Assembly: GCA_016844925.1 (NCBI GenBank)
Contig: JAERTI010000043.1
Location: 66,642 to 130,641 of the forward strand
DNA length: 64,000 bases
From: Candidatus Uhrbacteria bacterium
Lineage (GTDB): Bacteria; Patescibacteriota; Patescibacteriia; UBA9934; GWF2-40-263
Reading direction: 5' to 3'
Shown here: in pieces, positions 5,769 through 57,658 of the stretch
Numbering within the stretch: the first letter of the stretch is position 1
Layout of the letters: each line of letters opens with the position of its first letter
The notes under the pieces: generated by a model
What the model was told of the DNA's origin: nothing
The model's database searches: none
Seen by the model: the letters and a program-made list of their open reading frames with translations, nothing else
Position numbers and translations under genes: made by a program

Positions 5769-5790
5769 TTACTTAGGAGGAACGTATCTT

Positions 5791-6021
5791 ATGAATACAA
5801 AAGCATTAGCCGTACTCGGAGTAGTCGTGGCGTTGCTTATGGGGTGGCTCCTCGTATCGATGAGCGCACCACAGCTTGACACCTCAGATGGAACCCGTGA
5901 TGTAGATACAGAAGCTGCAGCTCCATCACCAGAAGGTGTAACTGAAGGCGATTCACTTGTTGAGACATCTGTCATCGTCGGTGATGACAACGTCGAAACA
6001 TCCGTAAAGGTAGCTGAATAA
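5791..6021 (+). CDS. small membrane protein
   Basis: AGGAGG RBS 8 nt upstream, one TM helix, acidic tail. Confidence 0.4.
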   Translation: MNTKALAVLGVVVALLMGWLLVSMSAPQLDTSDGTRDVDTEAAAPSPEGVTEGDSLVETSVIVGDDNVETSVKVAE

Positions 6022-8427: not shown

Positions 8428-10119
8428 ATGCCTACAACACAGGCACAATTAAAAGCACTTCTCGTGGAGGCCCATGTTTTAGATGGGGAAGCGTTTGATG
8501 AACTTGCACTACGTGCGAAGGAGGAGGGGGTGGCGATCTCAGATTTGCTGACGGACCTCGGTTTGGTGACGGACGAACAGCTTGGGCAATTACTTGCTCA
8601 TGAGTACGCCGTGAGATTTGTGCGTCTGGGTCAGGAGCGTATCAGTGATGAGATCTTGTCGCTAATCCCAGAGTCGTTTGCTCGCGCGCAGCTGTTGATT
8701 CCCGTGAGTCAGACGGCGTCACATGTTGTTATTGCTACGGCTCAGCCCGACGATGTCATCATGCGGTCGCTGTTGGAAAAGTACTTGCGCACGCAGGTGG
8801 TGTTCGCCTACGCAACACCAAGGGATTTACAAAACAATCTCTTCCTTTTTCGCCGAGATCCACGAGAAGAATTTGAGCGAATTGTCGCCATGAAAGAACA
8901 GGGGGGTGTTGAGGCTGCGGGGGCCATCATTGAGTTGGTTGATATAATGATGGACTCTGCCTATCAGGCTGGCTCTTCTGATATCCATGTTGAACCTGAA
9001 GACGATTACACGGTGGTCCGTTATCGCACCGACGGTGTCTTGCATGACATCGCCAGGCTCCCACTAAGCGTCCATCAGAGCATCATCACGCGTTTAAAGG
9101 TATTGGGACGTTTAGCTACGGATGAGCATCGAACCGCGCAGGATGGAAAGATTACGCACAAAGGACCATGGGGAGATGAAGTGGAGATTCGATTGTCGAT
9201 TGTGCCCACCACACACGATGAGAAGGCTGTCATGCGACTACTCTCAGACAAGGCAAGGCGTTTCCACTTAACGGACTTAGGTCTTTCAAAAGAAGATTTT
9301 GCACAGTTCGAGGAAGGAATTGAACGGCCATGGGGCTTGATTCTCGTCACAGGACCGACAGGATCAGGAAAAACAACCTCGCTTTATGCTGCGCTGAAGG
9401 TGTTAAACAAGCGAGAGGTAAACATCACGACCATTGAAGATCCTGTTGAGTACGATATCGAGGGAGTGAATCAGATACAGGTGAATGAAAAGACGGGCCT
9501 GACGTTTGCTAAGGGGCTGCGGTCAATCGTTCGCCAAGACCCCGATGTCATCATGGTGGGTGAGATTCGTGATAAAGAAGCTGCGGGTATCGCTGTGAAC
9601 GCGGCCATGACCGGGCATATTGTTCTCTCTACATTACACACCAACGATGCGGCAACAGCATTTCCAAGATTAGTCGATATGGATGTGGAGGACTTCCTCA
9701 TCGCTTCAACGGTTAATATGGTTATTGCACAGCGACTTGTGCGTAGGGTGTGCATGAGGTGCATTCTTAGCTATGCCATGACCAGCACAGAGAAAAAGAT
9801 GATCGAGGGGAATTCAATCATCCAGAAGTACTTAAAACAGATTACAGGCAAGGCGGATCTTACAAAGGTAAGGTTGTTTAAAGGAAAGGGGTGTCCTGTG
9901 TGTCACTATAGTGGATATGCAGGTCGTGTCGGAGTGTTTGAGGTGCTAGAAATGTCCGATGCCGTTCGAGAGGCTGTTATGGCTCGGAAAAATGCGGACG
10001 AGATTCATGAAATTGCTTTGGGTGAGGGTATGACCACGATGATGCATGATGGCCTGCGTAAGGTGGTAGAAGGGGTGACGACCCTTGAGGAGGTATTACG
10101 CGTCATTATGGAGAAATAA
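8428..10119 (+). CDS. pilB: type IV pilus assembly ATPase (GspE/PilB family)
   Basis: Walker A GPTGSGKTT, Asp/His boxes, C-terminal CxxC...CxxC, N-terminal GspII_E_N-like region, 563 aa. Confidence 0.85.
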   Translation: MPTTQAQLKALLVEAHVLDGEAFDELALRAKEEGVAISDLLTDLGLVTDEQLGQLLAHEYAVRFVRLGQERISDEILSLIPESFARAQLLIPVSQTASHVVIATAQPDDVIMRSLLEKYLRTQVVFAYATPRDLQNNLFLFRRDPREEFERIVAMKEQGGVEAAGAIIELVDIMMDSAYQAGSSDIHVEPEDDYTVVRYRTDGVLHDIARLPLSVHQSIITRLKVLGRLATDEHRTAQDGKITHKGPWGDEVEIRLSIVPTTHDEKAVMRLLSDKARRFHLTDLGLSKEDFAQFEEGIERPWGLILVTGPTGSGKTTSLYAALKVLNKREVNITTIEDPVEYDIEGVNQIQVNEKTGLTFAKGLRSIVRQDPDVIMVGEIRDKEAAGIAVNAAMTGHIVLSTLHTNDAATAFPRLVDMDVEDFLIASTVNMVIAQRLVRRVCMRCILSYAMTSTEKKMIEGNSIIQKYLKQITGKADLTKVRLFKGKGCPVCHYSGYAGRVGVFEVLEMSDAVREAVMARKNADEIHEIALGEGMTTMMHDGLRKVVEGVTTLEEVLRVIMEK

Positions 10120-11230: not shown

Positions 11231-11658
11231 ACAGGCGAGGGTTCACAGTCGTCGAGTTGATGATAGCCATAGCACTTCTCGGAATCCTTGTTGGGGCCGC
11301 TTTGGCAGCCTATTTACCGTTTCAGGAAAGGAATAAAGTCGACCTCGCCGTTCAGTCGAGTGTGCAAGAACTGAGGAGAGCTCAGATTCTTTCTCAGGCA
11401 GTTGATGGAGATGCGTCCTGGGGTGTTTCTGTGCAGGTGGGTACCATTACGCTTTTTCAGGGAGCGAGTTATGCTCTGCGAGATACGAGTCTCGATGAGG
11501 AGATAGCGATTGATGATTCGCTTACCCCCTCTGGATTGACAGAGGTGGTGTTTACAAAATTTACAGGTGTTCCACAGTCAACAGGCACACTTACTCTAAC
11601 GGGAACGTATGAGACAAGAGCCGTCACAATTAATGCCAGGGGAGTGCTCGACTACTAG
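11227..11658 (+). CDS. prepilin-type minor pilin/pseudopilin
   Basis: N-terminal MNRRG|FTVVELMIAIALLGIL class III signal peptide. Confidence 0.65.
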   Translation: MNRRGFTVVELMIAIALLGILVGAALAAYLPFQERNKVDLAVQSSVQELRRAQILSQAVDGDASWGVSVQVGTITLFQGASYALRDTSLDEEIAIDDSLTPSGLTEVVFTKFTGVPQSTGTLTLTGTYETRAVTINARGVLDY

Positions 11659-13045
11659 ATTAGGATTTTCTTTGATCGAGATCGTGCTCAGTATTGCTCT
11701 TTTTGGATTATTTTTTGTTGGTCTTGTGCCGGTGGTTATTGATGGACAGCAGTTTATTGCTGAGTCTGGTGCTCGTACGCGCGCTGTTTTTTTGGCAGAG
11801 GAAGGATTGGAGGCGGCAAAAAATATACGAGACGAGGGGTTCGTGAATTTGACTCTGGGCACACATGGGTTAGCAGATTCATCAAACACATGGGTTTTTT
11901 CTGGGAGTTCGGACACCGTTGATACCTATACGCGTTCTGTGACGGTCAGCCCCGTGGATTCAGATCGCAAAGACATTACTTCCACGGTGACATGGGACCA
12001 GACACCTGGGAGGGTTGGAAGTGTGAGTTTGGTGACACGTTTAACAAACTGGCAGGCCGGGACGGGGAAACCTATTCCAATTACACCAGGAGCAACGTTG
12101 GACCTTGGAGGTGTTGCCGATGGACAAGAGATTGGCCTTTATGTTGATGGGGGAACAACGTACGCTATTGTTGGCCGAAAGAAATCTTCGGATGAAGAGC
12201 TGTATATTATTGATGTATCAGACCCTACATCGCCATCAGTTGCCGCTTCTTTAGAAATTGGAAGCGATGTAAATGATATAGCTATCGTGGGGACAAATGC
12301 ATTCTTGGCGACATCCTCAAATACGGCAGAGCTCCAGGTTGTGAGTTTGCTTACACCAACAAGTCCATCAGTAACAGGAAGCCTTAATCTTGCAGGAACA
12401 CCCGATGCTGAGACGGTCGTTGCTGAAGGGAGTAATTTGTACCTAGGTCGAAGTGTTTATAGTGCTGGTCCAGAAATGTATTCGATCTCTATTGCCACAC
12501 CGACGTTACCAAGTGAACTCTCAAGTTTGGAGGTTGGTGACACGGTATGGAAGATAGTTTTGGCTCAGAGTAATACGTACGTTTATGCCGCCACTGGTAG
12601 TGATACGGCAGAAATGGCTGTTATAGACGTCTCGGCGCCGGGAAGCATTTCTCAAACAGCGGTTCTGGATGTTAGCGGACCGAGTGATGGAACAGCTATC
12701 CATGCGTTTTCCACATATGGATTACTTGGTACGGACGATGGGTATCTCCGTGTGGTTGATGTCTCAACACCATCTTCTCCGTCAGTGATCGGTACTGTAT
12801 TAAATGGAAACAAGATTAACGATATTGCTTTGGGGGTAGATAATGATTATGTCTTTTTGGGGAATAGTGCCGTTGGGGCTGAGGTAACCATTGTGAATAT
12901 TGTTGATCCAACAATACCGACCATTCATTACTCGATCGACCTTTCCGGAAACGAGGCTAAGGGCCTGATTTGGAGTGAGCCACTCAACGCCACGTTTGGA
13001 GTGGGTACCGGTAACACCGAAGAATTTTTTGCTATAACCCCATGA
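11633..13045 (+). CDS. large pilin-like protein with LVIVD-type beta-propeller repeats
   Basis: prepilin N-terminus G|FSLIEIVLSIALFG; repeated DVSDPTSPSV...G...A motifs resembling LVIVD repeats. Confidence 0.5.
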   Translation: MPGECSTTRLGFSLIEIVLSIALFGLFFVGLVPVVIDGQQFIAESGARTRAVFLAEEGLEAAKNIRDEGFVNLTLGTHGLADSSNTWVFSGSSDTVDTYTRSVTVSPVDSDRKDITSTVTWDQTPGRVGSVSLVTRLTNWQAGTGKPIPITPGATLDLGGVADGQEIGLYVDGGTTYAIVGRKKSSDEELYIIDVSDPTSPSVAASLEIGSDVNDIAIVGTNAFLATSSNTAELQVVSLLTPTSPSVTGSLNLAGTPDAETVVAEGSNLYLGRSVYSAGPEMYSISIATPTLPSELSSLEVGDTVWKIVLAQSNTYVYAATGSDTAEMAVIDVSAPGSISQTAVLDVSGPSDGTAIHAFSTYGLLGTDDGYLRVVDVSTPSSPSVIGTVLNGNKINDIALGVDNDYVFLGNSAVGAEVTIVNIVDPTIPTIHYSIDLSGNEAKGLIWSEPLNATFGVGTGNTEEFFAITP

Positions 13046-16134: not shown

Positions 16135-16211
16135 GGGCATGTAGCTCAGCTGGTTAGAGCGCATCCCTGATAAGGATGAGGTCGGAGGTTCGAGTCCTCC
16201 CATGCCCACCA
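16135..16211 (+). tRNA. tRNA-Ile(GAT), CCA encoded
   Basis: cloverleaf with anticodon loop cTGATAa; acceptor gggcatg/catgccc. Confidence 0.85.
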
Positions 16212-16217
16212 GAAGGC

Positions 16218-16292
16218 GCCGAGGTAGCTCAGGGGTAGAGCAGTGGACTGAAAATCCACGTGTCGTGAGTTCAAATCTCACCCTCGGCACCA
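16218..16292 (+). tRNA. tRNA-Phe(GAA), CCA encoded
   Basis: acceptor gccgagg/cctcggc, anticodon loop cTGAAAa. Confidence 0.85.
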
Positions 16293-22029: not shown

Positions 22030-23525
<1,496 letters not shown>

Positions 23526-23530
23526 ATATA

Positions 23531-36008: not shown

Positions 36009-36214
36009 AGAAAAGACGCCTGGTATCGGAGGAAGTAGAAAACGACGGGGCCAGCGTGAAAATAAAATCAGACGCCGGGGCGTCGTATTCAGTCTTCCTT
36101 TGCATCTTTCCCTTGCGGGATGGAGTTCGCACCTTATCGATTACTCGACAGGTTGCGGGCAGGTCATAGGGCCAATTCCCTCACTGCTCTCTGAATACGT
36201 TTCTTCAGTTGTTG

Positions 36215-40416: not shown

Positions 40417-40953
40417 TTACTCAGCAGCCTCTTCGGCTGGCTTCTCTTCTTCCGCAGGTGCTTCCTCTGCAGGAGCCTCCTCGGCCGGAGCTTCAGCCTC
40501 TGCGGCTGGTTCCTCTGCAGGAGCCTCTTCAGCTGGAGCTTCAGCTTCTGCCTTAGCAGCCTCGGCCTCAGCCTTAGCAGCCTCTGCAGCAGCAGCCTTC
40601 TCTTCTTCAGCCTTTGCCTTTGCAGCCTCTTCCTTCTCCTTAGCAGCAGCAGCCTTTTCTTCGATCTTTGCTGCGCGCTTCTTGGAGATGTGTGTAGAGC
40701 CACGCTTTTCACCTTCGACGATCTTTTGGTCGACGAGGAGGTTCCAGACGCTGTTAGAAGGCTGGGCACCCTGGCTGATCCAGTACTTTACGCGGTCAGC
40801 CTTGATGACGATTTCCTTAGGATTTGAGCGAGGGTTGTAGTGGCCAAGGATCTCGTTTGAGTCGGCCCATGGGTCGCGGTGCTTAGGCATTACAACAATG
40901 CGGTAAACCGGACGCTTTTTTGACCCCACGCGGGAGAGTCGAATAGAAAGCAT
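40417..40953 (-). CDS. rpsP: 30S ribosomal protein S16 with about 95-aa Ala/Glu/Lys-rich C-terminal extension
   Basis: MLSIRLSRVGSKKRPVYRIVV S16 N-terminus; repetitive AEEAPAEE tail encoded by tandem DNA repeats. Confidence 0.85.
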   Translation of the reverse strand: MLSIRLSRVGSKKRPVYRIVVMPKHRDPWADSNEILGHYNPRSNPKEIVIKADRVKYWISQGAQPSNSVWNLLVDQKIVEGEKRGSTHISKKRAAKIEEKAAAAKEKEEAAKAKAEEEKAAAAEAAKAEAEAAKAEAEAPAEEAPAEEPAAEAEAPAEEAPAEEAPAEEEKPAEEAAE

Positions 40954-41254: not shown

Positions 41255-41284
41255 ATTGACAAAAGTGTCAAAAGATGGTATTGT
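41255..41284 (+). promoter_or_regulatory. near-consensus sigma70 promoter with embedded palindrome, pointing into the high-GC array
   Basis: TTGACA, 17-nt spacer, TATTGT; palindrome TGACAaaagTGTCA overlapping the -35 and spacer. Confidence 0.45.
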
Positions 41285-41511
41285 ACACACGTAATGATGA
41301 GAACTCAACAGAAGCTCATCGATCACTACAACTGCATATTTCTCTGGGGAGAGAGTATAAAAAGGACTAAATCCTAAGGGTTTAGGGCCGGTTGTTATGT
41401 ATTTCTTTCCAGAAGTACCTAGCAATCGGCCTTTTTTGTTCGCCGGGCATGGACTGAGGATCACGTCCCCAGTCTTGTCCCAACGAGCTCAACGCCTAGG
41501 AGGCCCTGCTC

Positions 41512-45174: not shown

Positions 45175-45260
45175 GGAACACTGTGCATTACCGATTCCTT
45201 CTTGAAACATTCGAGGATGTATCGGTGATGCAACGGAGTGTCACCTCAGAGGAATCTTTC

Positions 45261-45614
45261 ATGTACAAGTACATCGTCGCACTGGCGATCTTCCTGTTCG
45301 CCGCCAACCCCGCCTACGCCTGCTCGCAGGACACTGGCAAGCAGATCCACTTTGAGTGGGAGGGGGAGACCTACGTGGTCGAGGCGCACAGGGATGTCAA
45401 CGCGACCGTGACCAAAGCGGTCACCGGAACCGAGTTCGAGGTCGAGATCGTCAACGCGACGACGCTGATCCTCAAGCAGGGGCGCAGGACGCTCGCTACT
45501 GGGAGCATCTGGGCCTGCACCAAGTGCTTCATCGGTTCGCCCGGCTATGTGACGTGGGAAGGTGAGGAGAGTGCCAAGAACGCCTACGACGCTTGCATCG
45601 ACGCCGCCGGCTAG
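45261..45614 (+). CDS. small secreted protein
   Basis: signal peptide ...ANPAYA|C; alternative ATG at 45228. Confidence 0.5.
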   Translation: MYKYIVALAIFLFAANPAYACSQDTGKQIHFEWEGETYVVEAHRDVNATVTKAVTGTEFEVEIVNATTLILKQGRRTLATGSIWACTKCFIGSPGYVTWEGEESAKNAYDACIDAAG

Positions 45615-45699
45615 AGAAGACAGATAAGTGAGCCCCCGGCTTGCTTCTGCTCTGACGTGGCTACGTCAGACGCGCTCGGTATGGGAATGAACTATTCTC

Positions 45700-45753
45700 T
45701 GCCGAGCTTCACAGCATAGTGGTTGATTACAAAAATCGACCCCTGCGCTGGGG
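45700..45753 (+). repeat. degenerate attC-like repeat (GGTTGATT...TCGAC...GCTGGGG)
   Basis: B-type L-boxes retained, R-boxes diverged. Confidence 0.4.
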
Positions 45754-45801
45754 AAGACTGATCTTCCTTTGAGGCCCGTTCATTCGGGCAAGGATAGCAA
45801 C

Positions 45802-46314
45802 ATGCTGCTGATCGCTCTGACGATCGTGTCCACCATCGCCCACGCTGACCTCACTCCCGTTGGCGCCACCGCCGACGAGGTCAAGGTGGAGGCGGAGCTC
45901 GTGATGGTGAGCTGGTACCGCGACCACGGGGAGACCTGCGAGGTCGAGGGTCCCCACGGTCACATTCAGTACGCCGACGGCACCGACGAGGTCGTGATGC
46001 CGAGCGAGTCCAGCGACGAGTACGTGCTCGACTTCACGTTCTCTCGTGAGCAGTTCGAGGGCAAGAAGCCCGAGGCGAGCTCGGACGATTCCAACGAGAA
46101 GACCGAGGCCATCGACCCCGAGCTGACCCTCAAGTCCCACCCGTTCTTCGAGGAGTGGGACCGCCAGCTCAAGGAGAATGATAGCTTCGGCGAGGCTTTC
46201 GACAAGCAGCTCAAGCTCCAGCTCGCCAAGGAGCAGGCCGAGATCGAGGAGCCCACCGAGTCCGCCACCATCGAGGAGCCCGCCGAGTCCACCGAGGACA
46301 GCCCCTCGAAGTAG
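45802..46314 (+). CDS. secreted acidic protein
   Basis: AAGGA RBS, signal peptide ...TIAHA|D. Confidence 0.5.
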   Translation: MLLIALTIVSTIAHADLTPVGATADEVKVEAELVMVSWYRDHGETCEVEGPHGHIQYADGTDEVVMPSESSDEYVLDFTFSREQFEGKKPEASSDDSNEKTEAIDPELTLKSHPFFEEWDRQLKENDSFGEAFDKQLKLQLAKEQAEIEEPTESATIEEPAESTEDSPSK

Positions 46315-46411
46315 CTCGCCGGAGGTTCTCCTGCACATCCTCTGCGGCCAGATACGCTGGCACGCAGAGCGTCGCATCCCGCGACACGTCCTGAGCAACG
46401 TCTGCTCGGGA

Positions 46412-46453
46412 TTTCAACGTAGAGCTCGAGTTTGCTCGAGACCTGCGTTGAGG
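46412..46453 (+). repeat. attC-like repeat, A-type
   Basis: TTTCAAC...CTCGAGtttgCTCGAG...GTTGAGG. Confidence 0.6.
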
Positions 46454-46506
46454 GCTGAGGCTCTCTTGATCAAATCCTCAGTGCTACTGGGGTAAAGGAA
46501 CACGAC

Positions 46507-46770
46507 ATGTTGATGATCGCTCTGACCCTCCTGATGGGCAACGCGAACGCTGGCATGAAGCGCGGTAAGGCTTCGGCCTCGGACACTACTCCCGTCAGCC
46601 TCTACCACAACGGTGAGGTGGCGGAGCTGGACCGCCAGGAGCTGGTGCAGACTCTGCACGACCTGATGCATCCCAGCTGCGAGGTGAATACCTCGCACGT
46701 CCACCGCGTGAACAAGCATGGTCTGGAAGAGGTCATCCTCATGCCGACCGAGCCGACCACCACCAACTGA
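46507..46770 (+). CDS. small secreted protein
   Basis: GGGTAAAGGA leader, signal peptide. Confidence 0.45.
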   Translation: MLMIALTLLMGNANAGMKRGKASASDTTPVSLYHNGEVAELDRQELVQTLHDLMHPSCEVNTSHVHRVNKHGLEEVILMPTEPTTTN

Positions 46771-46799
46771 CCCGACGAGGTGAACGACTTCGTCGGGAT

Positions 46800-46841
46800 C
46801 CTCAACGTAGAGCTCGAGTTTGCTCGAGACCTGCGTTGGGG
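46800..46841 (+). repeat. attC-like repeat, A-type
   Basis: CCTCAAC...GTTGGGG; preceded by cccgacgagg..ttcgtcggg hairpin. Confidence 0.6.
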
Positions 46842-46950
46842 AACCGCCCCTAAGTAAGATAACCGTCCGTGATCTGCAGCGCGCCGACATTTCCGTCGAG
46901 CAGCGCATATTGCAGCACTGGCAACTTCTGTGCGAGAGCGCGGGGGTATC

Positions 46951-47271
46951 ATGTTTCTGACTCAGATCTACAGCGCCGTGGAAGGTGACTTCAAGGCCAA
47001 CGCCGTCCGTATCACTGAGGTGGAGGCTGGCACAGGTATCTGGCTCGATCCTGAAGCTGATCCGCTCCTGGTCGTCGGTGAGTACATTCTGATGACTTCC
47101 GAAGGGAGGATTCTGGATGAGGATGAGTCCATCGAGGTCACGGTGAGGTCGCAGGGCATTCGTGTCCGCGTTCGTCTGTTCCATGATGGGCATGAGGCGG
47201 CAGCCTGGTGTCTGCTCCAGACAATCGGTAACGCGTCCATCAACACTGTCACGATCGATTGCGATGACTAA
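46951..47271 (+). CDS. hypothetical protein
   Basis: ORF within cassette. Confidence 0.45.
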   Translation: MFLTQIYSAVEGDFKANAVRITEVEAGTGIWLDPEADPLLVVGEYILMTSEGRILDEDESIEVTVRSQGIRVRVRLFHDGHEAAAWCLLQTIGNASINTVTIDCDD

Positions 47272-47380
47272 CGTTAAAGCAACCTGCACGAGACAGTACA
47301 TGACCCCGTCAGGCACGGATGACCTGGCGGGTATGACCGGGCTCAGCTCGGCACGCCTCAAGTACACGCAACGCTTGAGG

Positions 47381-47422
47381 ATCGAACGTAGAGCTCGAGT
47401 CTACTCGAGACCTGCGTTGGGG
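47381..47422 (+). repeat. attC-like repeat, A-type
   Basis: ATCGAAC...CTCGAGtctaCTCGAG...GTTGGGG. Confidence 0.55.
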
Positions 47423-47440
47423 AACGTTCCCTAGAACCAA

Positions 47441-48726: not shown

Positions 48727-48797
48727 CCTCAACACAGAGGTTGATTAACCACGTAAAACCCTTCGGGTCACGTGGCACGTCGACATCTGCGTTGGGG
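48727..48797 (+). repeat. attC-like repeat, B-type
   Basis: near-identical to 47988..48058. Confidence 0.6.
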
Positions 48798-48828
48798 AAA
48801 CCCTGACTCAGACCTATAGGAGGCCTTT

Positions 48829-49197
48829 GTGCCGCACACCGACAATCAGACTCTCTTCCTTCGGCTGACTCTTGCGGCGTGGATCGCCCAGGAGTTCGGG
48901 ATCGAGCCAGATATGGCCGAGATCGACGCGTTCCTCGCGAAGCTGCAGGACGAAGAGGCCCTGAATAACTTCGATGACCGGGACTCCCGACCGGGGTTCT
49001 GGATCATGGAGAACAAGCTCTTCCAGTACCACCATCACCACAAGCCCGGCTTCTACATCTACAACGTCGACGGTGAGAACTGGCACCGCGACTACAACCG
49101 CATCGACGATCTCAACCGGATCGTCTGGCCCAACCCGGTGATGACCGGCTCGGTTGGCAGCGACTGTGGTCGCTGGGGCTGCTGGGGTCGCTACTAG
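48829..49197 (+). CDS. hypothetical protein with HHHH tract
   Basis: AGGAGG RBS followed by GTG start. Confidence 0.45.
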   Translation: MPHTDNQTLFLRLTLAAWIAQEFGIEPDMAEIDAFLAKLQDEEALNNFDDRDSRPGFWIMENKLFQYHHHHKPGFYIYNVDGENWHRDYNRIDDLNRIVWPNPVMTGSVGSDCGRWGCWGRY

Positions 49198-49298
49198 CAC
49201 CCAGCACACAACCCCGTTAGGCACGGACGACCTAGCGGGCACCCACGTAAAGACCTTCGGTCCACGTGGCACGGCCCAAGTCACGACGCGACTTGGGA

Positions 49299-49340
49299 CC
49301 TGAACGTAGAGCTCGAGTTTGCTCGAAACCTGCGTTGAGG
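49299..49340 (+). repeat. attC-like repeat, A-type
   Basis: preceded by H1 hairpin, UUCG hairpin and cccaagt/acttggg hairpin. Confidence 0.6.
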
Positions 49341-49392
49341 GCTGAGGCTCTCTTGAACACACCCCCGGCAATGTCCGGGTAAAGGCTGCGAG

Positions 49393-49599
49393 ATGTGGAA
49401 TTGGCTGAACCGACTTCTGGGCATCAACCCCAAGAAGAAGGAGTCCACCACCAGGACGAGGACTGGGCTCGGCTCTCAGAACGACGCTTGGCGTCGTGAG
49501 CGCTGCCCGCTTCCTGAGTTCGATTTCAGGGGCCCCACGCGTCGCCGGATTGAGCGAGAGCTCGCCGAACGAGCGCACGCCCGCACCGAACGCTACTAG
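49393..49599 (+). CDS. small basic protein (68 aa)
   Basis: cccggc..ccggg-TAAAGG leader. Confidence 0.35.
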   Translation: MWNWLNRLLGINPKKKESTTRTRTGLGSQNDAWRRERCPLPEFDFRGPTRRRIERELAERAHARTERY

Positions 49600-49628
49600 C
49601 CCGACGAGGTGAACGACCTTGTCGGGAT

Positions 49629-49670
49629 CCTCAACGGAGTTCTCGATAAGATCGAGAGTTCCGTTGAGAG
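49629..49670 (+). repeat. attC-like repeat, C-type (CCTCAAC ggagtt CTCGAT aaga TCGAGA gttcc GTTGAGA)
   Basis: same architecture, different L-boxes. Confidence 0.55.
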
Positions 49671-49805
49671 ATTTTCAAAAATGATTGTTCTTCCGGGGCG
49701 CAGAATACAATTGTGCTCCCTGGAAGGCTGGTCAGTAATCGGGATTGATCAGTCTCTTCTGCTTAGGCAGAGCCAGCATTTGCTGGAACACACGAAGGAG
49801 AAACA

Positions 49806-50135
49806 GTGACCCGCTGTGATAAATGTGGTCTCCCTGTAACAAGGGAAAACAACGCACTTCTGCTTTCGATCGTCGTCAAGCGCATGGTGAAGCACGGAGT
49901 GGATTACGTTCCTGGCGAGTGTAACGCCCTCGATCTCATGGCCATTGTTGTGCTCAGGGGTCGACACTTGCTGCCGGTAACCGAAGGTGATGAGGTGGTT
50001 TGCACTGGCTCCCCAAGCCGCGCACAGTACCTGCCTGGTCAGCCTGAGGATACGCGCGGGTTTCCGCTTGATGAGAATCTTCGTCCCGTCTACGACGCGG
50101 CTTACAATCGTCTGACATCCGGCAGGCCGATCTGA
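49806..50135 (+). CDS. hypothetical protein with N-terminal CxxC
   Basis: AAGGAG RBS followed by GTG; AT-richer cassette. Confidence 0.45.
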   Translation: MTRCDKCGLPVTRENNALLLSIVVKRMVKHGVDYVPGECNALDLMAIVVLRGRHLLPVTEGDEVVCTGSPSRAQYLPGQPEDTRGFPLDENLRPVYDAAYNRLTSGRPI

Positions 50136-50203
50136 TGTAGTCTCATCACTTGCTACGCCCCCCCGACCGAGGACCCGTCTGACAGCAGATGGGGAACGTC
50201 CTC

Positions 50204-50244
50204 GTTCGGGCTCCCAATGGAGCGTTCGATAAGATCGAATGTTC
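50204..50244 (+). repeat. attC-like repeat, C-type variant with compensatory R-box change (CCCAAT / ATTGAGG)
   Basis: C to T in R'' matched by G to A in R'. Confidence 0.5.
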
Positions 50245-50320
50245 CATTGAGGGAAACCTCTTGCACGACAGCTGACGGCTTGCCGTCATAACCATAAGCA
50301 GTCCCTCCCTGGAGTAACAC

Positions 50321-50733: not shown

Positions 50734-51279
50734 ATGAGTGACATGGATACGAGAGTGGGGACGGAGTGCCTCGTGCAGATCGAAGAGATCGACGAGCAGA
50801 TTGAGCGGCTGCAGCAGCGACAGAAGGAGCTGATGGAGCAGGCTCGCGTCTCCACGGCCGTGGCCTACGTGGCCATTCTGGACGTGCAGACCCAGGCCGT
50901 AGACATCTTCCCGGTGTCGTCGGACGACCGGCTCAACGCGTACGGGAACCAGTGCGACTGCGACTTGATGCTCAACACGTGCTACTGCGACGAGAAGTGG
51001 ACGTCGGTCCGCAACTTCTCGTTCGAGGTCATGCTCGACGACCGTCCGTCCTGGCAGAGGCGCCACTCGCCTCGCAAGGATGGTGTCCAGCTCGCCTTCG
51101 AGTACTGGTGCGACAAGCGCGACTACTTCAAGACCTCCACGAGGGGTCTGCCGTACGGTGAGGAGTGTGAGCAGGTGGACTGGGAACGACCTCGCCGCAA
51201 GATGCTGCTGTACGCCACCAGGACCGAAGAAGAGGCTCGCACCTGGGCCGCGTCCAAGACGCAGCAGGCCGCTGGCTAG
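50734..51279 (+). CDS. Cys-rich hypothetical protein (181 aa; CDCD...CYCDEKW)
   Basis: ORF within cassette. Confidence 0.5.
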   Translation: MSDMDTRVGTECLVQIEEIDEQIERLQQRQKELMEQARVSTAVAYVAILDVQTQAVDIFPVSSDDRLNAYGNQCDCDLMLNTCYCDEKWTSVRNFSFEVMLDDRPSWQRRHSPRKDGVQLAFEYWCDKRDYFKTSTRGLPYGEECEQVDWERPRRKMLLYATRTEEEARTWAASKTQQAAG

Positions 51280-51919: not shown

Positions 51920-52651
51920 ATGAGCAAGATGGAAGAGATCCGCCAGACGGTGGCGGACAACATGCATCGCGTGGCCAAGCTCGGCCAGTGGCCCAGCCAC
52001 ATCAACGCCGAGAAGAGCCTGCTGAGCCGCATTCCCGAGCCGGGCAAGGAAGCCCCTGGGTTCGACGCCGGCATCGCCTGCGCGCTGGGCCTGATCCCGC
52101 GCGACAAGCAGCAGCTGGCGGCGCAGCTGCACGCCAACTACACCCCCAAGGCGGTGAAGCTGGTGCGGCGCCAGTCCGTTCAGATGCACGAGGACGCCCC
52201 CACCACCTGGTGGCTCGCCGCGTGCTGGCTCTGCGACGAGGCCGGTGTGAGTCAGCGAGACTTCCTGCGCCAGGTGAGTGCGTTCAAGCGCCTCGCTGCG
52301 GATCCGCAGACCAGGCGCAAGGTCGCCCGGGAGGAGCTGGAGCGCAAGAAGAAGCTCTTCGTCGTTCTGGACGGCATCGCCTACGGCGCTCAGGATGGTG
52401 CTGCGCAGGGAGCGTACATCGCTGGGGTGGACCTCGCGGTGGTGTGGATGGAGAAGTACGGTATCTACTTCGTCAGCACCTACCACGAGAGCCTCGGCCT
52501 GGAGGACTTCGTCTGGTCCGACCGTGTCGACGACCAGGGGCGGCTCATGAGCGGCCCGATCCACGGCTCGCGCCAGTTCGTGAAGACCGGCTCCCAGGAG
52601 GAGCTCGGCAAGATGCTGGAGATCGCCAAGGCCCACCTGGCCATCGGCTAG
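51920..52651 (+). CDS. hypothetical protein, paralog family X (PGFDAGIACAL, TWWLAA, SLGLEDF.WSD)
   Basis: about 45% identical to 53453..54202. Confidence 0.6.
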   Translation: MSKMEEIRQTVADNMHRVAKLGQWPSHINAEKSLLSRIPEPGKEAPGFDAGIACALGLIPRDKQQLAAQLHANYTPKAVKLVRRQSVQMHEDAPTTWWLAACWLCDEAGVSQRDFLRQVSAFKRLAADPQTRRKVAREELERKKKLFVVLDGIAYGAQDGAAQGAYIAGVDLAVVWMEKYGIYFVSTYHESLGLEDFVWSDRVDDQGRLMSGPIHGSRQFVKTGSQEELGKMLEIAKAHLAIG

Positions 52652-52737: not shown

Positions 52738-52847
52738 ACTCAACGGAGAGGTTGATACGAATATTCCTCGAGCAACGTCGAGAGGCTGTATATGCAGCAC
52801 TTCGACAGGCTCAGTGAATATTCGCGTGATTGACACCTGCGTTGGGG
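52738..52847 (+). repeat. attC-like repeat, long B-type variant (110 bp) with nested 10-bp stem ACGAATATTC/GAATATTCGT
   Basis: ACTCAAC...GTTGAT...TTGAC acctgc GTTGGGG. Confidence 0.5.
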
Positions 52848-52897
52848 AAACTGCTTTTCCCACGGTCCGGTTCACGCCGGAAAAGGCAATAGCTGAA

Positions 52898-53239
52898 ATG
52901 TTTGAGTCCGAGGTCCTTAACGGGCTTGCGGTGGTTCTAGTCTACGTTCTGCCGTTTGGATGCGCGTTCCTTATCGCCTACAAAGGAGAGTGGTTCGAGA
53001 GGGTGCGTGCGTTCAGTTCATGGTTCGAGATGGCGATCGGAGACGAGAGTCTCGATGGTTCTCGAAAGAGGCGTGGTGACAGGTACCTGTACCTGGCCAA
53101 CGCGATACTCATCGGCATCTGCACCGGCATGCTCGTGACAACTGGTACACGTGAGTTCAGTGCCTCCGCAACGATCAATCTGGTGGTGTGTCTACTTTGG
53201 GGGGTCTTCCAGATTTACCTCCTGAGGAAGCGACGGTAA
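52898..53239 (+). CDS. membrane protein (113 aa)
   Basis: three hydrophobic helices. Confidence 0.45.
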   Translation: MFESEVLNGLAVVLVYVLPFGCAFLIAYKGEWFERVRAFSSWFEMAIGDESLDGSRKRRGDRYLYLANAILIGICTGMLVTTGTREFSASATINLVVCLLWGVFQIYLLRKRR

Positions 53240-53329
53240 GCACACGGGCCGACTGACGTCGCTCTCGGTTTGCAAGATGACCGAGGGTAGACGATGCCTG
53301 GCGCGAGGAGAACGTCCTTGTGTCGGGCT

Positions 53330-53400
53330 CCTCAACACAGAGGTTGATGAACCACGTAAAACCCTTCGGGTCACGTGGCAGGTCGACACCTGCGTTGGGG
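53330..53400 (+). repeat. attC-like repeat, B-type
   Basis: followed by palindrome ACCTGCCGGCAGGCAGG. Confidence 0.6.
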
Positions 53401-53452
53401 ACTTACCTGCCGGCAGGCAGGAACCCATCTTTCAACTTCAAGGAGGGGTCAC

Positions 53453-54202
53453 ATGACCTTCGACATCAGGGGTGCCGCAGAGGCACTGGAGACCGTGCGT
53501 GACAACGTGGAGCGCGTGGCAGCGCTGGGTGAGTGGAGCGCGAACGAGCACGCCAAGGGGCGTCTGATCGGGCGCGTCCCGCAGGACAACGATGGTGAGG
53601 ACGAGGTACTGGCTCCCGGCTTCGACGCCGGCATCGCCTGCGCGCTGAGCATGATCCCCGAGGACAAGCAGCGGCTCAGCGCCGTCCTGCACGCGGCGTA
53701 CACGCCCGAGGCCATCGCGCAGCTGCGTGGTGAGCTCGAGAACATGACCCCCGGCACCGAGACCACCTGGTGGCTCGCTGCCAGCTCGCTGTGCGAGGAG
53801 GGGAACATCTCCGTGCTCAGCTTCATGGCCCAGGTGCGCCAGTTCGAGCAGCTGATGCTGGATCCGGCCAAGCGCCTGATGGCCGCCAAGGCCGAGTGGA
53901 ACAAGCTCAAGGGCAGCTTCCAGGACATGAACGGTGTCGCCTACACCACGGTGGATGGTGGCATGCAGGCTGGCTACATCGCTGGTCACAAGCTGGCGGT
54001 GGGATACGCCGAGAACTACGGCATCCACTTCGTGGGCACCTACCTGCCCAGCCTGGGCCTCGAGGACTTCGAGTGGTCCGACGTCTGTGACAAGCAGGGT
54101 CGCTCCACCAGCGGCCTGCTCGGACCGAACTTCGCCAAGGTCGGCGATCTGGTCGAGCTCGGTGAGGTCATCAAGATCGCCCGGGCCCACCTGAAGATCT
54201 AG
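53453..54202 (+). CDS. hypothetical protein, paralog family X
   Basis: AAGGAGG RBS. Confidence 0.6.
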   Translation: MTFDIRGAAEALETVRDNVERVAALGEWSANEHAKGRLIGRVPQDNDGEDEVLAPGFDAGIACALSMIPEDKQRLSAVLHAAYTPEAIAQLRGELENMTPGTETTWWLAASSLCEEGNISVLSFMAQVRQFEQLMLDPAKRLMAAKAEWNKLKGSFQDMNGVAYTTVDGGMQAGYIAGHKLAVGYAENYGIHFVGTYLPSLGLEDFEWSDVCDKQGRSTSGLLGPNFAKVGDLVELGEVIKIARAHLKI

Positions 54203-54209
54203 GAGACAG

Positions 54210-54371
54210 ATGAAAGAATGGATTCAGGGGCTGCTGAAAAAGTACTTCAGCCCCCCACCACCGCGACGTCCAACCGTCTACGTGGTGCACGGACCCGCTT
54301 ACCGCTCGCGCTGGAGCTGCCGGTGCGACGAGACGGAACCCGATTGGCAGGACAGCTGCTACTGCGGGTAA
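54210..54371 (+). CDS. small Cys-rich peptide (53 aa; C.C.ETEPDWQDSCYC)
   Basis: AGGAG RBS 4 nt upstream; not in ORF track (under 60 aa); C-terminus resembles 55849..56067. Confidence 0.4.
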   Translation: MKEWIQGLLKKYFSPPPPRRPTVYVVHGPAYRSRWSCRCDETEPDWQDSCYCG

Positions 54372-54414
54372 GAGTCTGACGGCTCGACCGAGGAGAACGT
54401 CCTCGTGTCGGGCT

Positions 54415-54456
54415 CCTCAACGGAGTTCTCGATTTCGGTCGAGACCTGTGTTGGGG
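54415..54456 (+). repeat. attC-like repeat, A/C hybrid (CCTCAAC ggagtt CTCGAT ttcg GTCGAG acctgt GTTGGGG)
   Basis: mixed L-boxes. Confidence 0.55.
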
Positions 54457-54540
54457 AATATCCTGAGTAGGATTGACCTAAATCGTCGCAGATTGGTGTT
54501 GCCTGCAATGCCGATGCTGCACTTCACAGGAGAAGGACAC

Positions 54541-54930
54541 ATGCTGAGGGAACGGCTCGAACAAGGTCGAGGGATCCCTGCCAAGACCGACCACAACAGG
54601 GTTCGGCAGGTGAAGGATGCGCTGGTTCAGGAGCTCGGTGAGCATCTGGGGCGTGAGTACCGATGGCTGGCGGCCTGCACGGTTGCGGTCGAGGGCGGCC
54701 GGTGGGGTGGCGAGCGCCGCCGCAAGCGACGTCTCAAGCTCGCCGCGATGATCGGCGAATGCTACGCTCACCTGGGTGAGCCCAACCCGTTGGCGGAGCT
54801 GCCCAAGGACTGGGAGATGACTGGGCTGTACTACGGCTACGGTGCCATGCAGCGCTACCAGGAGGATCGCGGTGGCAGCATCGAGGGACTCGTCATGATC
54901 GGGCTGCTGGACAGCGGCAAGCTCGGCTAG
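54541..54930 (+). CDS. hypothetical protein (129 aa)
   Basis: AGGAGAAGGA RBS. Confidence 0.45.
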   Translation: MLRERLEQGRGIPAKTDHNRVRQVKDALVQELGEHLGREYRWLAACTVAVEGGRWGGERRRKRRLKLAAMIGECYAHLGEPNPLAELPKDWEMTGLYYGYGAMQRYQEDRGGSIEGLVMIGLLDSGKLG

Positions 54931-55038
54931 CTCCACCTCTGGAGCACACGACCCCGTCAGGCACGGACGACCTGACGGGCGCCCACGTAAAGACCTTCGG
55001 TCCACGTGGCACGCCCCAAGTCACTACGCGACTTGGGG

Positions 55039-55080
55039 ACTGAACGTAGAGCTCGATTGTGATCGAGACCTGCGTTGGGG
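55039..55080 (+). repeat. attC-like repeat, A-type
   Basis: preceded by perfect H1 hairpin CCCGTCAGG/CCTGACGGG and UUCG hairpin. Confidence 0.6.
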
Positions 55081-55163
55081 ACCTGTCCACCGACAGGGGG
55101 GAAACCCAATCGAAACAACGGGCGTCGGCCCGTAAGTCCAGCAGCGCTGGAAGAAAGGAAGAC

Positions 55164-55481
55164 GTGCTTGTTGATGTAATGATCTACTTGGCATGTTGGT
55201 TGGTCGGAGCGGTGTCTGGTCAGCTGATCAGGTTTCTTCCCAAGAGAGATCGGTTTGGCATGAGGCAGGTGGGTTTGATGGCCTTCATTGGTCTGGGCTG
55301 CATGTTGTCTTTGAACGTGATGTTTCTCGATTTCGATGATGCCGCCAAGGTGGCTTCATGGTCGCGGGATGTCACTGGGACCTACGGAACCTTGTTCGGT
55401 TTTTACTTCGGGTCTCTTCACGTCTTCGAGGCGATGGTGAAGTCGAAGAATTCTTCCTCACAACAGGAAAGAAAGAGTTAA
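55164..55481 (+). CDS. small membrane protein
   Basis: start GTG 55164 or ATG 55179. Confidence 0.4.
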   Translation: MLVDVMIYLACWLVGAVSGQLIRFLPKRDRFGMRQVGLMAFIGLGCMLSLNVMFLDFDDAAKVASWSRDVTGTYGTLFGFYFGSLHVFEAMVKSKNSSSQQERKS

Positions 55482-55483
55482 AG

Positions 55484-55693
55484 ATGAAGAAGAATAAGAT
55501 GAGCGAGTGCCGCCAGTTGATTCTTGGCTTAGCCCTCGAATGGTTCTTGTTCCTTCTGGTTGCCATGGCGATTTTCTTCGCAATAAAGTCCAGTGTTTGC
55601 TCAGGTGCTGTTGCTGCTGAACGGTCGGCGATGGAAGGCTATTCGATCTTGAGAGAGGTTCTTTGCGAGGCTATACAGTCAAGCGACACGTAG
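55484..55693 (+). CDS. small membrane protein (69 aa)
   Basis: immediately follows previous ORF; AT-richer. Confidence 0.4.
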   Translation: MKKNKMSECRQLILGLALEWFLFLLVAMAIFFAIKSSVCSGAVAAERSAMEGYSILREVLCEAIQSSDT

Positions 55694-55800
55694 ACCACAT
55701 ATCCTCACACCTGTTACGTTCTTCTGGGCCGCGTGCGTTTCTATCGTACGAGCAGAAGAGGGCAGGGTGAGACGACCTCAAGCGCACGCAATGCTTGGGG

Positions 55801-55842
55801 ACTGAACGGAGAGCTCGATTTCGATCGAGACCTGCGTTGAGG
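55801..55842 (+). repeat. attC-like repeat, A-type; R' GTTGAGGTG doubles as SD for next ORF
   Basis: ATG 6 nt after GAGGTG. Confidence 0.55.
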
Positions 55843-55848
55843 TGAATC

Positions 55849-56067
55849 ATGGAGAACGAAGAAACCATCGAGACAGAAAGGACGGCCATGGACCGATTCA
55901 TTCAGGGGCTGCGGAGTTTCTTCCGCTGGGACCCCGAGTCTGAAAAGGTGCAAGAGATCGCGTTGGTCCCCACCGGACCCAAGCGGAAGCGTCCGCGTCA
56001 CCCCGAGACCGGCTGCTACTGCGAACCGGACCCTGAGTGGCAGGAGTACTGCCACTGCTGGCACTGA
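55849..56067 (+). CDS. small Cys-rich protein (72 aa; GCYCEPDPEWQEYCHCWH)
   Basis: C-terminal motif shared with 54210..54371. Confidence 0.45.
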   Translation: MENEETIETERTAMDRFIQGLRSFFRWDPESEKVQEIALVPTGPKRKRPRHPETGCYCEPDPEWQEYCHCWH

Positions 56068-56109
56068 GCCCTACGGCTCGACCCGAGGAGAACGTCCTCG
56101 CGTCGGGCT

Positions 56110-56151
56110 CCTCAACGGAGTTCTCGATTTCGATCGAAACCTGCGTTGAGG
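56110..56151 (+). repeat. attC-like repeat, A-type
   Basis: CCTCAAC ggagtt CTCGAT ttcg ATCGAA acctgc GTTGAGG. Confidence 0.6.
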
Positions 56152-56185
56152 TGAATCCATCACCTAAAGAAACAGGAGGCAAGGC

Positions 56186-56728
56186 ATGCAAATCGACAGA
56201 GACAGGCACCTGCTGAAAAACATGAGAACGTGGAGCGCGGCTCTGGTGGAAGCGTTCAAGGGGATCTACAAGGAGCCTCTCAAGAACCAGCCCACCGGCA
56301 AGCCCTGGCCCGAAGGGACCAAGCAGTCGCTGGGTCACAGTGGTGGCCTGTGGAACATTGAGCTGCCCACCGGTGAGAAGCTGCAGATCCACATCTCGGA
56401 CAACGTCTCGCGCGAGCCGCTTCCGGAGATTCCGCTGCGATGGTTCCCGGTCGTGGAGATCGAGACGCGCCAGGTTCTGCTGCTCCCCAGGCTGCAGCTG
56501 CAGCTGTGGCAGGGTCACATGGAACCCGAGGAGCTCGACGAGCTTCTCATTCCGGATCTCGATCTGGTGCGCCTGGGCACGCTGGACATCGCGCCGATGC
56601 TGCCCCTCAAGGCCATCGCGCTCATGCTCCTGGTCAAGATGCCGACGCCGATGGGCTACGGCACTCGGGCAGAGGCGCAGACGTTCCGACAGGCACTGAT
56701 GCGAACCTGCGCGGAGCACACCATCTGA
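56186..56728 (+). CDS. hypothetical protein (180 aa)
   Basis: AGGAGG RBS. Confidence 0.5.
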   Translation: MQIDRDRHLLKNMRTWSAALVEAFKGIYKEPLKNQPTGKPWPEGTKQSLGHSGGLWNIELPTGEKLQIHISDNVSREPLPEIPLRWFPVVEIETRQVLLLPRLQLQLWQGHMEPEELDELLIPDLDLVRLGTLDIAPMLPLKAIALMLLVKMPTPMGYGTRAEAQTFRQALMRTCAEHTI

Positions 56729-56784
56729 GCGTGAGTACATGAGCCCTACGGCTCGACCCGAGGAGAACGTCCTCGCGTCGGGCT

Positions 56785-56830
56785 CCTCAACGGAGAGGTT
56801 GATTCGCGAGAATCGACACCTGCGTTGAGG
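56785..56830 (+). repeat. attC-like repeat, short B-type
   Basis: CCTCAAC ggagag GTTGAT tcgcgaga ATCGAC acctgc GTTGAGG. Confidence 0.55.
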
Positions 56831-57451: not shown

Positions 57452-57658
57452 ATGCTTAAAGGCATCATCACGTTCGTGCTCTCATGGTTCGATGTTGATA
57501 CCGATCGCCCGATGATCACATTCTTCGCGATCATTGTCTTGGCGATTGTGGGCGGGTTTAGCGTTGACTCGCTCAAGGGAGAGGTTGAGGAGCTGAAGCT
57601 GGCCGTGTGTCAGTGTCAGTGCGAGCAAGGCAAAGCGCTTTGTGGAAAGGGTGAGTGA
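57452..57658 (+). CDS. small membrane protein with CQCQCEQ tail
   Basis: first of 4 overlapping small membrane ORFs. Confidence 0.4.
   Translation: MLKGIITFVLSWFDVDTDRPMITFFAIIVLAIVGGFSVDSLKGEVEELKLAVCQCQCEQGKALCGKGE

Follow-up and report, generated by a model that had tools for sequence, protein, structure and literature searches.

Do two very small, cysteine-rich open reading frames (ORFs) on a contig of a Candidatus Uhrbacteria bacterium encode related proteins and, if so, what could these proteins be? We addressed this question for a 64,000-nucleotide stretch of DNA (assembly GCA_016844925.1, contig JAERTI010000043.1, positions 66,642 to 130,641 of the forward strand), which is referred to as the window in the following. 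An earlier note, made from the letters of the window alone, had pointed to a 53-codon ORF at 54210..54371 and to the ORF 55849..56067, here named P1 and P2, and had proposed that both belong to a family of small metal-binding, redox or bacteriocin-like peptides carried in cassettes. As detailed below, P1 and P2 are members of a small-protein family that is confined to Uhrbacteria-like bacteria and carried in an integron-like cassette array, and the conserved C-terminus of these proteins may be a metal-binding mini-domain.

Two paralogous small proteins in one cassette array

P1 (54210..54371, + strand; MKEWIQGLLKKYFSPPPPRRPTVYVVHGPAYRSRWSCRCDETEPDWQDSCYCG) comprises 53 amino acids (aa) and is the most divergent member of the family. 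The ORF, which is shorter than the 60-aa cutoff behind the earlier note, is intact and present in the ORF list, and it is also among the genes called in another, independent assembly. Its strong ribosome binding site is AGGAG at 54201-54205, located 4 nt ahead of the ATG at 54210. This AGGAG overlaps the TAG (54200-54202) that ends a 249-aa gene at 53453..54202, in agreement with the suggested coupling of P1 to its upstream neighbour. P2 (55849..56067, + strand; MDRFIQGLRSFFRWDPESEKVQEIALVPTGPKRKRPRHPETGCYCEPDPEWQEYCHCWH) has 72 aa when read from the ATG at 55849, while the family alignment enters it at Met14 (ATG at 55888), giving a 59-aa form. Either start is preceded by a Shine-Dalgarno-like sequence, namely GAGGTG 4 nt upstream of 55849, which stems from the core of a cassette-associated repeat (see below), and AAGGA 8 nt upstream of 55888.

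The C-terminal ends of the two proteins are SCRCDETEPDWQDSCYCG in P1 and GCYCEPDPEWQEYCHCWH in P2, and a pairwise BLASTP comparison of the two proteins gave E = 2e-4. An N-terminal motif that the earlier note did not mention is common to both as well (MKEWIQGLLKKYF in P1 and Met14-DRFIQGLRSFF in P2). Across the six translated frames of the window, the pattern C.C-x(3-9)-W-x(2-4)-C.C had just two matches, namely P1 and P2. Only 0.04 matches were expected by chance based on 300 block shuffles, none of which reached two. Judging from these comparisons, P1 and P2 are true paralogs. The supposed likeness to a CDCD...CYCDEKW block in the ORF 50734..51279 did not hold up. BLASTP aligned nothing but ‘CYC’ (E = 0.35), and this ORF was dismissed as a third family member, as the hidden Markov model (HMM) profile of the family did not match it even at E ≤ 100. 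The looser pattern CxC-x(4-14)-CxC has approximately nine chance occurrences in the six frames of the window.

A lineage-restricted family of four-cysteine proteins

Word-indexed homology searches with P1 and P2 retrieved the queries themselves and a single ortholog of P2 (P0003, 94% identical), which occurs on at least 12 metagenome contigs. Five of these contigs from JGI and ENA metagenomes (L003-L007) carry a syntenic array. As word-indexed searches found almost nothing else, the family came to light through synteny and profile searches. In L003, the slot orthologous to P1 holds a 61-aa member, P3, whose end reads GCYCEPHPEWQEYCHCWS. The profile search called for in the earlier note was run with the family profile and recovered additional homologs, yielding five further members (P4 to P8); scans of genomes and of metagenomes with the sequence pattern added one locus each. 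When 1.84 billion representative proteins were scanned in full with HMMER, no more than five true clusters emerged. An 887-aa protein from the profile search (P0010) was discarded as a low-complexity false positive. In total, nine distinct members were found behind the motif, which are P1, P2, P0003, P3 (P0006), P4 (P0007, from the NCBI metagenome assembly GCA_041294325.1), P5 (P0009), P6 (P0008), P7 (from locus L014), and P8 (from locus L012, 10309..10473, with a GTG start). With local scoring, the family profile matched P1 at E = 1.4e-20 and P2 at E = 5e-33, and P7 and P8, which had been left out of profile building, still scored 1.8e-15 and 1.6e-10, respectively.

The family proteins are ~53-61 aa long and consist of three parts. 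At the N-terminus, an amphipathic helix of ~12 residues (M-x-x-hydrophobic-I-x-x-hydrophobic-L-G, hydrophobic moment up to 2.2) is followed by a conserved Pro or Glu-Pro. This helix is MKEWIQGLLKKYFSPP in P1 and, from Met14 onwards, MDRFIQGLRSFFRWDP in P2, with the shared core M..[WF]IQGL, and it is alike in P3, P4, P6, and P8. The middle part is a fast-evolving, Pro-rich and mostly basic linker of 20-25 residues. The C-terminal mini-domain is acidic (net charge −1 to −4), strongly conserved, and follows the consensus [P-x-T-G]-C-x-C-x(2-3)-x-P-[DE]-W-[QG]-[DE]-x-C-x-[CH]. Six columns (C, C, P, W, C, C) are invariant across seven aligned members, and all six are retained in P1. In its short form, CxC-x(5-6)-W-x3-CxC, this motif is newly defined here.

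No family match for the peptides was obtained in Pfam, NCBIfam, PADLOC or PHROGs, and weak library matches to YihI and phrog_34534 were regarded as noise. A PDB sequence profile search with the family gave nothing at E ≤ 10, Foldseek with a low-confidence peptide model gave no meaningful match, and no relatives were found in viral, plasmid and phage collections. All nine members originate from uncultured, Uhrbacteria-like bacteria of the Candidate Phyla Radiation (CPR) and are located in the same array between rlmN-rpsP and smc. We conclude that P1 and P2 belong to a real, previously undescribed and lineage-restricted family of small proteins.

Two further ORFs of the array, both 68 aa long and on the + strand, are of note here. 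The ORF at 49393..49599 starts with MWNWLNRLLGINPKKK, which is similar to the N-terminal helix and basic linker of the family, and is devoid of the Cys motif. Its sequence suggests that the N-terminal module may be common to other cassette proteins. For the ORF at 57452..57658, the N-terminal half is hydrophobic and the Cys-rich tail (AVCQCQCEQGKALCGKGE) differs from that of the family, of which this ORF is not a member.

Coding status and selection

Substitutions were counted on codon alignments according to Nei and Gojobori, with the C-terminal region taken as the last 21 codons. In this region, the proportions of synonymous (pS) and nonsynonymous (pN) differences were 0.70 and 0.06 for P2/P4, 0.70 and 0.08 for P2/P3, and 0.79 and 0.08 for P5/P7. 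For P2 and P0003, the ratio of nonsynonymous to synonymous substitution rates (dN/dS) of the C-terminal region was 0.08. The N-terminal and linker region of the family evolved much faster (dN/dS 0.4-0.9). Since pS is near saturation while nonsynonymous changes are rare, the ORFs encode proteins under selection, and an explanation at the level of DNA is ruled out. Moreover, the reading frame, the start codon and a GGAG-type Shine-Dalgarno sequence upstream of it are retained in all nine members, across genomes that are roughly 70-75% diverged at the nucleotide level. The family ORFs are coding, and their C-terminal block is under strong purifying selection.

The family genes reside in an integron-type cassette array

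The array that contains both P1 and P2 (41490..64000, + strand) follows rpsP and continues beyond the end of the window. It consists of small, mostly orphan genes that are separated by attC-like repeats of the form CCTCAAC (R''), 5 or 6 nt, L'' of 6-7 bp, a loop, L', 5 or 6 nt, and GTTG[AG]GG (R'). Such sites are found at 54415-54456, 55801-55842, and 56110-56151 and in at least nine further places, all as + strand features in the case of those bordering P1 and P2. The left edge of the P1 cassette is formed by a long attC-like repeat at 53305..53400 (+) of the repeat families D4 and D7, with its R' core GTTGGGG at 53394-53400. The site closing this cassette (54415..54456, +) reads R'' CCTCAAC, 5 nt, TCTCGA, loop, TCGAGA, 5 nt, and R' GTTGGGG; its single-strand DNA fold has a z-score of −3.5, and an additional GC-rich hairpin lies ahead of it at 54382-54414. 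The P1 cassette thus delimited (53394 to 54456) spans 1,056 bp and holds two genes, P1 and the 249-aa gene. The P2 cassette (55836 to 56151, 309 bp) holds a single gene. Upstream of P2, the site 55801..55842 (+) ends with the R' core GTTGAGG at 55836-55842, which merges into the GAGGTG of the 55849 start. The site that closes the P2 cassette (56110..56151, +) folds with −27.5 kcal/mol (z = −5.4), with its R boxes and its L boxes paired and an internal loop between the two stems.

The same order of R-box stem, internal loop and L-box stem was predicted for the single-strand DNA folds of the attC-like sites in general, with z-scores of −3.5 to −5.7. The loop enclosed by these same R and L boxes has a length of 4 nt in the window and of up to ~70 nt in L003 after P3. 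This variable loop between otherwise identical boxes, together with the hairpin fold, corresponds to the architecture of attC sites. Compared with the consensus sequences R'' RYYYAAC and R' GTTRRRY, the core sites agree at six of seven positions each, with the outermost pair being C/G and not R/Y, and the predicted folds contain 1-nt mismatches and internal loops, which are symmetric, in place of clearly bulged G or T bases. In integron attC sites, extrahelical bases of the bottom strand determine the choice of strand and the polarity.

No integrase was detected among the ORFs of the window at 24-47.5 kb and 56.7-64 kb or in the loci L003, L008, L011, and L012. Because of this lack in the examined regions, the array resembles a cluster of attC sites without any integron-integrase (CALIN) as defined previously (PMC9024848), and we classify it as integron-type and CALIN-like. 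A complete integron was rejected, as no intI was present in the examined regions and the arrays are bordered directly by rpsP at one end and by smc at the other. We also considered whether the cassette repeats derive from repetitive extragenic palindromic (REP) sequences and a REP-associated tyrosine transposase (RAYT). This origin was dismissed because the RAYT is flanked by its own, distinct REPs and is absent in L008 and L011. The RAYT gene itself (NF047646, 103 bits) is located at 11603-12226 (−) in L012 and 5351-5974 (−) in L009. In both loci it lies between the last cassette and smc, and is flanked by GTAG-type GTAGCGGCGGGCTTCAGCCCGCC repeats.

At the head of the array, a conserved non-coding element is present in all related genomes, at 41256-41440 (+) in the window, and at ~290-480 in L003, ~1455-1640 in L008, ~7940-8090 in L011, and ~5680-5830 in L014. 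Its promoter is close to the consensus (TTGACA, 17 nt, and TATTGT, plus a TG extension), and the element also comprises an invariant TGGGGAGAGAG box and a long hairpin with a T-run behind it. Changes in the stem between lineages are compensatory, and Rfam gave no match for the element, which looks like a small RNA or leader.

Cassette turnover among related genomes

The array is located between rlmN-rpsP and smc in every locus. This includes L011, a Candidatus Uhrbacteria metagenome-assembled genome (MAG) whose RlmN and ribosomal protein S16 are 72% and 67% identical, respectively, to the proteins encoded in the window. For a closer comparison, window 41490-64000 was aligned with L003 1-14000. 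Both are collinear, and the shared cassettes are 92-97% identical. Units such as 45179-47435, 48797-50263, 52756-53385, 55077-55794, and 56151-56812 of the window occur, each as a whole, in one of the two only, and the break points coincide with repeats. As whole units differ while their flanks stay 92-97% identical, the units behave as cassettes. The proposed carriage of the family in cassettes is thus borne out by units that are bounded by attC-like hairpins and are present or absent as a whole between strains.

The layout of a 249-aa gene followed by a peptide gene also occurs in L003 (8270..9019 and 9027..9212), and the junction between the two genes, TAGGAGACAGATGAAAGAA, is 100% conserved between L003 and the window. 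The flanks of the P1 and P3 ORFs are 97-100% identical, while the ORF itself is unalignable from codon 7 on. A comparison of L003 9027-9266 with window 54210-54371 and 56000-56120 showed that the 3' half of P3 and the start of its attC site share 87.7% identity with the 3' end of the P2 cassette. These results indicate that the peptide gene in the orthologous P1/P3 slot was replaced, probably by gene conversion among paralogous cassettes. Other loci differ in the position of the family genes. Two family cassettes, P6 (10001-10162) and P8, stand in tandem in L012. In L011 and L014, which represent two different Uhrbacteria-like genomes, the family gene comes first after the conserved promoter at the array head, and the first position after the promoter is the best expressed one in an integron.

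A putative metal-binding mini-domain

What could these proteins do? Among the options raised in the earlier note, metal binding is most compatible with the evidence. We consider it about equally probable to be right or wrong that the C-terminal mini-domain is a cytoplasmic Cys4/Cys3His metal-binding knuckle, which would most likely bind Zn(II) and possibly Cu(I). We infer that the two CxC pairs are placed on two strands of a beta-hairpin, where they would jointly ligate one metal ion, with the invariant Pro-Asp/Glu-Trp shaping and capping the loop. A dimeric cluster like that of the CxCx4CxC tail of CopY, or Cu(I), would be possible in place of Zn(II). The genes themselves are promoterless accessory genes in integron-type cassettes, usually in single-gene units of ~300 bp, with P1 and its counterpart P3 sitting instead fused behind the 249-aa orphan gene. 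As to their cellular role, our guess is that the proteins would act as small adaptors or regulators that depend on metal, or would buffer metal, and dock via the N-terminal helix.

Several observations point in this direction. None of the members contains a transmembrane or signal-like 19-residue window (maximum Kyte-Doolittle value 1.34), which would be consistent with a cytoplasmic location, and their motif region is acidic. An AlphaFold2 (AF2) model based on seven sequences pairs strand 42-45, containing the first CxC, with strand 53-56, containing the second one, with a C-terminal predicted local distance difference test (pLDDT) score of 64-67. P8 ends with GCTCAPEIEWQDSCHHHH and has a His at the position of the fourth Cys and a run of His at its terminus (CHHHH). 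A swap of Cys for His is a normal exchange of metal ligands and would leave an odd Cys in a ladder of two disulfides, thus favouring a metal over disulfides. A His is located between the last two Cys in five of the nine members, and P8 has a His at this position, too. Furthermore, a 14-residue CopY peptide with the CxCx4CxC pattern suffices for Zn(II) and Cu(I) binding and for dimerisation (PMC12648655).

Other points weigh against a metal-binding knuckle. The AF2 peptide model is of low confidence (pLDDT 59, predicted template modelling score 0.26), and hairpin peptides with a disulfide ladder likewise have CxC pairs on adjacent beta-strands. Only one sequence, which possibly is decaying, has His instead of the fourth Cys, and the family is tiny, so that the conservation statistics depend on few pairs. 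No sigma-70-like promoter was found near P1 or P2, and P1 is ~13 kb away from the promoter at the array head. Finally, some of the micro-proteins predicted to be zinc fingers fail to bind zinc (PMC11241148).

Alternative explanations

We weighed four other explanations. That the ORFs are untranslated, with the conserved block reflecting a DNA-level constraint beside an attC recombination site, is hardly credible. The motif indeed lies directly 5' of a conserved attC-proximal hairpin and has no promoter nearby, but pS of 0.7-0.8 versus pN of 0.06-0.08 in the motif region is the opposite of conservation at the DNA level, frame, start codon and Shine-Dalgarno sequence persist in the whole family, and non-family cassettes possess the same hairpin without the motif. 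If the proteins are made, the Cys motif might serve as an interaction epitope of a regulatory or partner-binding protein and not as a metal site. The partner could be the coupled 249-aa protein, in a toxin-antitoxin-like or enzyme-regulator pair, or a membrane protein contacted via the N-terminal helix, which is amphipathic. The translational coupling of P1 and P3 to the 249-aa orphan gene, with its fully conserved junction, fits this possibility, as does the frequent occurrence of two-gene modules such as toxin-antitoxin or defence systems in integron arrays (bioRxiv 10.1101/2024.07.02.601686, 10.1101/2022.08.03.502626). However, six of the nine members (P2, P0003, P4, P5, P6, and P8) reside in single-gene cassettes, P7 also occurs without the 249-aa gene, a 243-aa paralog of the 249-aa protein has no peptide partner, and PADLOC gave no matches. 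Four invariant Cys in a CxC/CxC arrangement also make little sense unless metal or disulfide chemistry is involved, and we regard a pure interaction epitope as unlikely.

Disulfide chemistry is the core of another explanation, an exported or released beta-hairpin peptide with two cross-strand disulfides like those of protegrin, which would be a bacteriocin, an effector, or the precursor of a ribosomally synthesized and post-translationally modified peptide (RiPP) with the helix as leader. CPR bacteria are thought to be episymbionts able to deploy small effectors, and the conserved N-terminal helix with the variable linker resembles a leader/core layout. The two CxC triplets are, as predicted by AF2, on paired antiparallel strands, as in beta-hairpin antimicrobial peptides (PMC13001179). 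Against this, there is no Sec-type signal or transmembrane stretch, the motif region is acidic and not cationic, the loop of 9-10 residues is far longer than in hairpin antimicrobial peptides, and the His that replaces the fourth Cys in P8 would break the ladder. Nor was a double-glycine or other cleavage motif found, and the single-gene cassettes contain no maturase, transporter or immunity gene; the radical SAM gene nearby, the sole one in the vicinity, is the housekeeping gene rlmN. An exported peptide thus appears improbable, and nothing spoke in favour of the bacteriocin-like nature that the earlier note had listed, as the acidic peptides show neither a leader or cleavage motif nor an export signal, and their cassettes neither a maturase nor a transporter. 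A redox-active iron protein, either a rubredoxin-like Fe(Cys)4 site or an Fe-S cluster held by two chains in a small electron carrier or redox sensor, would account for the four invariant Cys with the invariant Trp and nearby aromatic residues. The acidic surface is like that of small electron carriers, and the data do not tell Zn from Fe. Yet the CxxC or CPxCG knuckles that define rubredoxin-type sites are missing, neither Pfam nor the PDB sequences yielded a relative even at E ≤ 1-10, the cassettes contain no redox partner, and a Cys3His variant with a His tail is encountered more typically in Zn or Ni sites. We therefore judge an iron protein to be improbable as well, and the redox option of the earlier note gained no specific support.

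Comparison with known systems

For the metal-binding knuckle favoured above, the copper repressor CopY of Enterococcus hirae is the best functional analogy, as it, too, carries a couple of CxC pairs close together at its C-terminus. The CopY spacer has 4 residues, whereas that of the family is 9-10 residues long and includes the invariant P-[DE]-W. CopY is a BlaI/MecI-type winged-helix repressor, in contrast to the free-standing proteins of ~55 aa described here, which have no DNA-binding domain, no Pfam match and no sequence homology to CopY. The family is not of the CopY type, yet may function like a CopY-type CxC/CxC thiolate site. The beta-hairpin antimicrobial peptides of the protegrin type (CxC-x4-CxC) share the CxC...CxC pattern and the paired strands predicted by AF2 (PMC13001179). 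They are animal-derived, cationic, secreted, processed from precursors, and have a 4-residue turn, whereas the family proteins are acidic, lack a signal peptide, and have a loop of 9-10 residues, with His replacing a Cys in one member. CxC is a recurrent ligand pair in Zn and Cu thiolate sites, such as those of metallothioneins and the zinc centre of Hsp33. Metallothioneins contain far more Cys and few aromatic residues, compared with 4 Cys per ~55 residues plus Trp and Tyr in the family, and Hsp33 pairs its CxC with a CxxC inside a large chaperone. Neither is homologous to the family.

The C(P)XCG zinc-finger micro-proteins of Haloferax volcanii are similar in being shorter than 70 aa and lineage-specific and in having four Cys in two pairs as their sole recognisable feature (PMC11241148). 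The roles of such prokaryotic micro-proteins are mostly unknown or regulatory (PMC11241148). They use CPxCG/CxxC knuckles, whereas the family has CxC triplets only, shows no sequence relationship to them, and is bacterial (CPR) and cassette-borne. Pfam zinc-ribbon families did not match the family peptides at E ≤ 1. Membership in the CopY, C(P)XCG zinc-finger, metallothionein, beta-hairpin antimicrobial peptide and RiPP families was rejected, as a defining feature is missing in each case.

The array, in turn, is similar to sedentary chromosomal integrons and to the orphan cassettes of CALIN elements in having unidirectional, promoterless, small and mostly orphan genes, each followed by an imperfect palindrome with AAC/GTT cores, and in its strain-variable cassette content and the lack of an adjacent integrase (PMC9024848). 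It differs from these elements in its CPR host, in its shortest sites of just 41-46 nt, in symmetric internal loops with no obvious extrahelical bases, and in its fixed rpsP-smc locus behind a conserved promoter and RNA-like element.

Neighbouring genes and other features of the window

The 249-aa orphan gene (53453..54202, +), which is located in the P1 cassette and coupled to P1 at the level of translation, has a paralog in another cassette at 51920..52651 (+). The encoded 243-aa protein is 48% identical, and no peptide gene follows it. Neither protein had a match in Pfam, NCBIfam, PADLOC or PHROGs, and an AF2 model of the 249-aa protein from a two-sequence alignment was unusable (pLDDT 39).

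Beyond the array, the G+C content of the window steps from about 48% (1-26000) to about 60% (27000-64000) near 26-27 kb. The low-GC part contains a 16S rRNA gene (22031-23527, −) and two tRNAs (16135-16289), its genes are nearly all on the + strand, and its GC skew reaches +0.2. A SAM riboswitch is located at 36099-36201 (−). Ribosomal protein S16 (40417-40953, −) carries a long, repetitive C-terminal extension rich in Ala, Glu, and Lys, with DNA repeats at 40422-40660, and its homolog in the Uhrbacteria MAG has a similar extension.

Implications for CPR biology

Gene callers routinely miss small proteins, and integron cassettes are dominated by orphan genes. The case of P1 shows that an ORF of less than 60 aa can be a genuine gene under selection. 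With more than 22 kb of exchangeable cassettes, the array represents a large investment for a CPR genome of ~1 Mb. The practical impact of these findings is modest pending a demonstrated function. In a far-reaching and rather doubtful scenario, the family would represent metal-dependent accessory factors that are exchanged among Uhrbacteria-like episymbionts via an integrase-less, integron-like system, which would be fixed at rpsP-smc and headed by the conserved promoter and a structured RNA. If this were true, the small-protein family and the CPR cassette platform would both be new biology, and a metal-loaded mini-domain, docked by its amphipathic helix, would serve these organisms for interaction with the host or for scavenging metal. 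Should the domain bind metal, it would rank among the smallest CxC-based metal modules known and would offer a tractable, peptide-sized entry point to the content of CPR cassette arrays.

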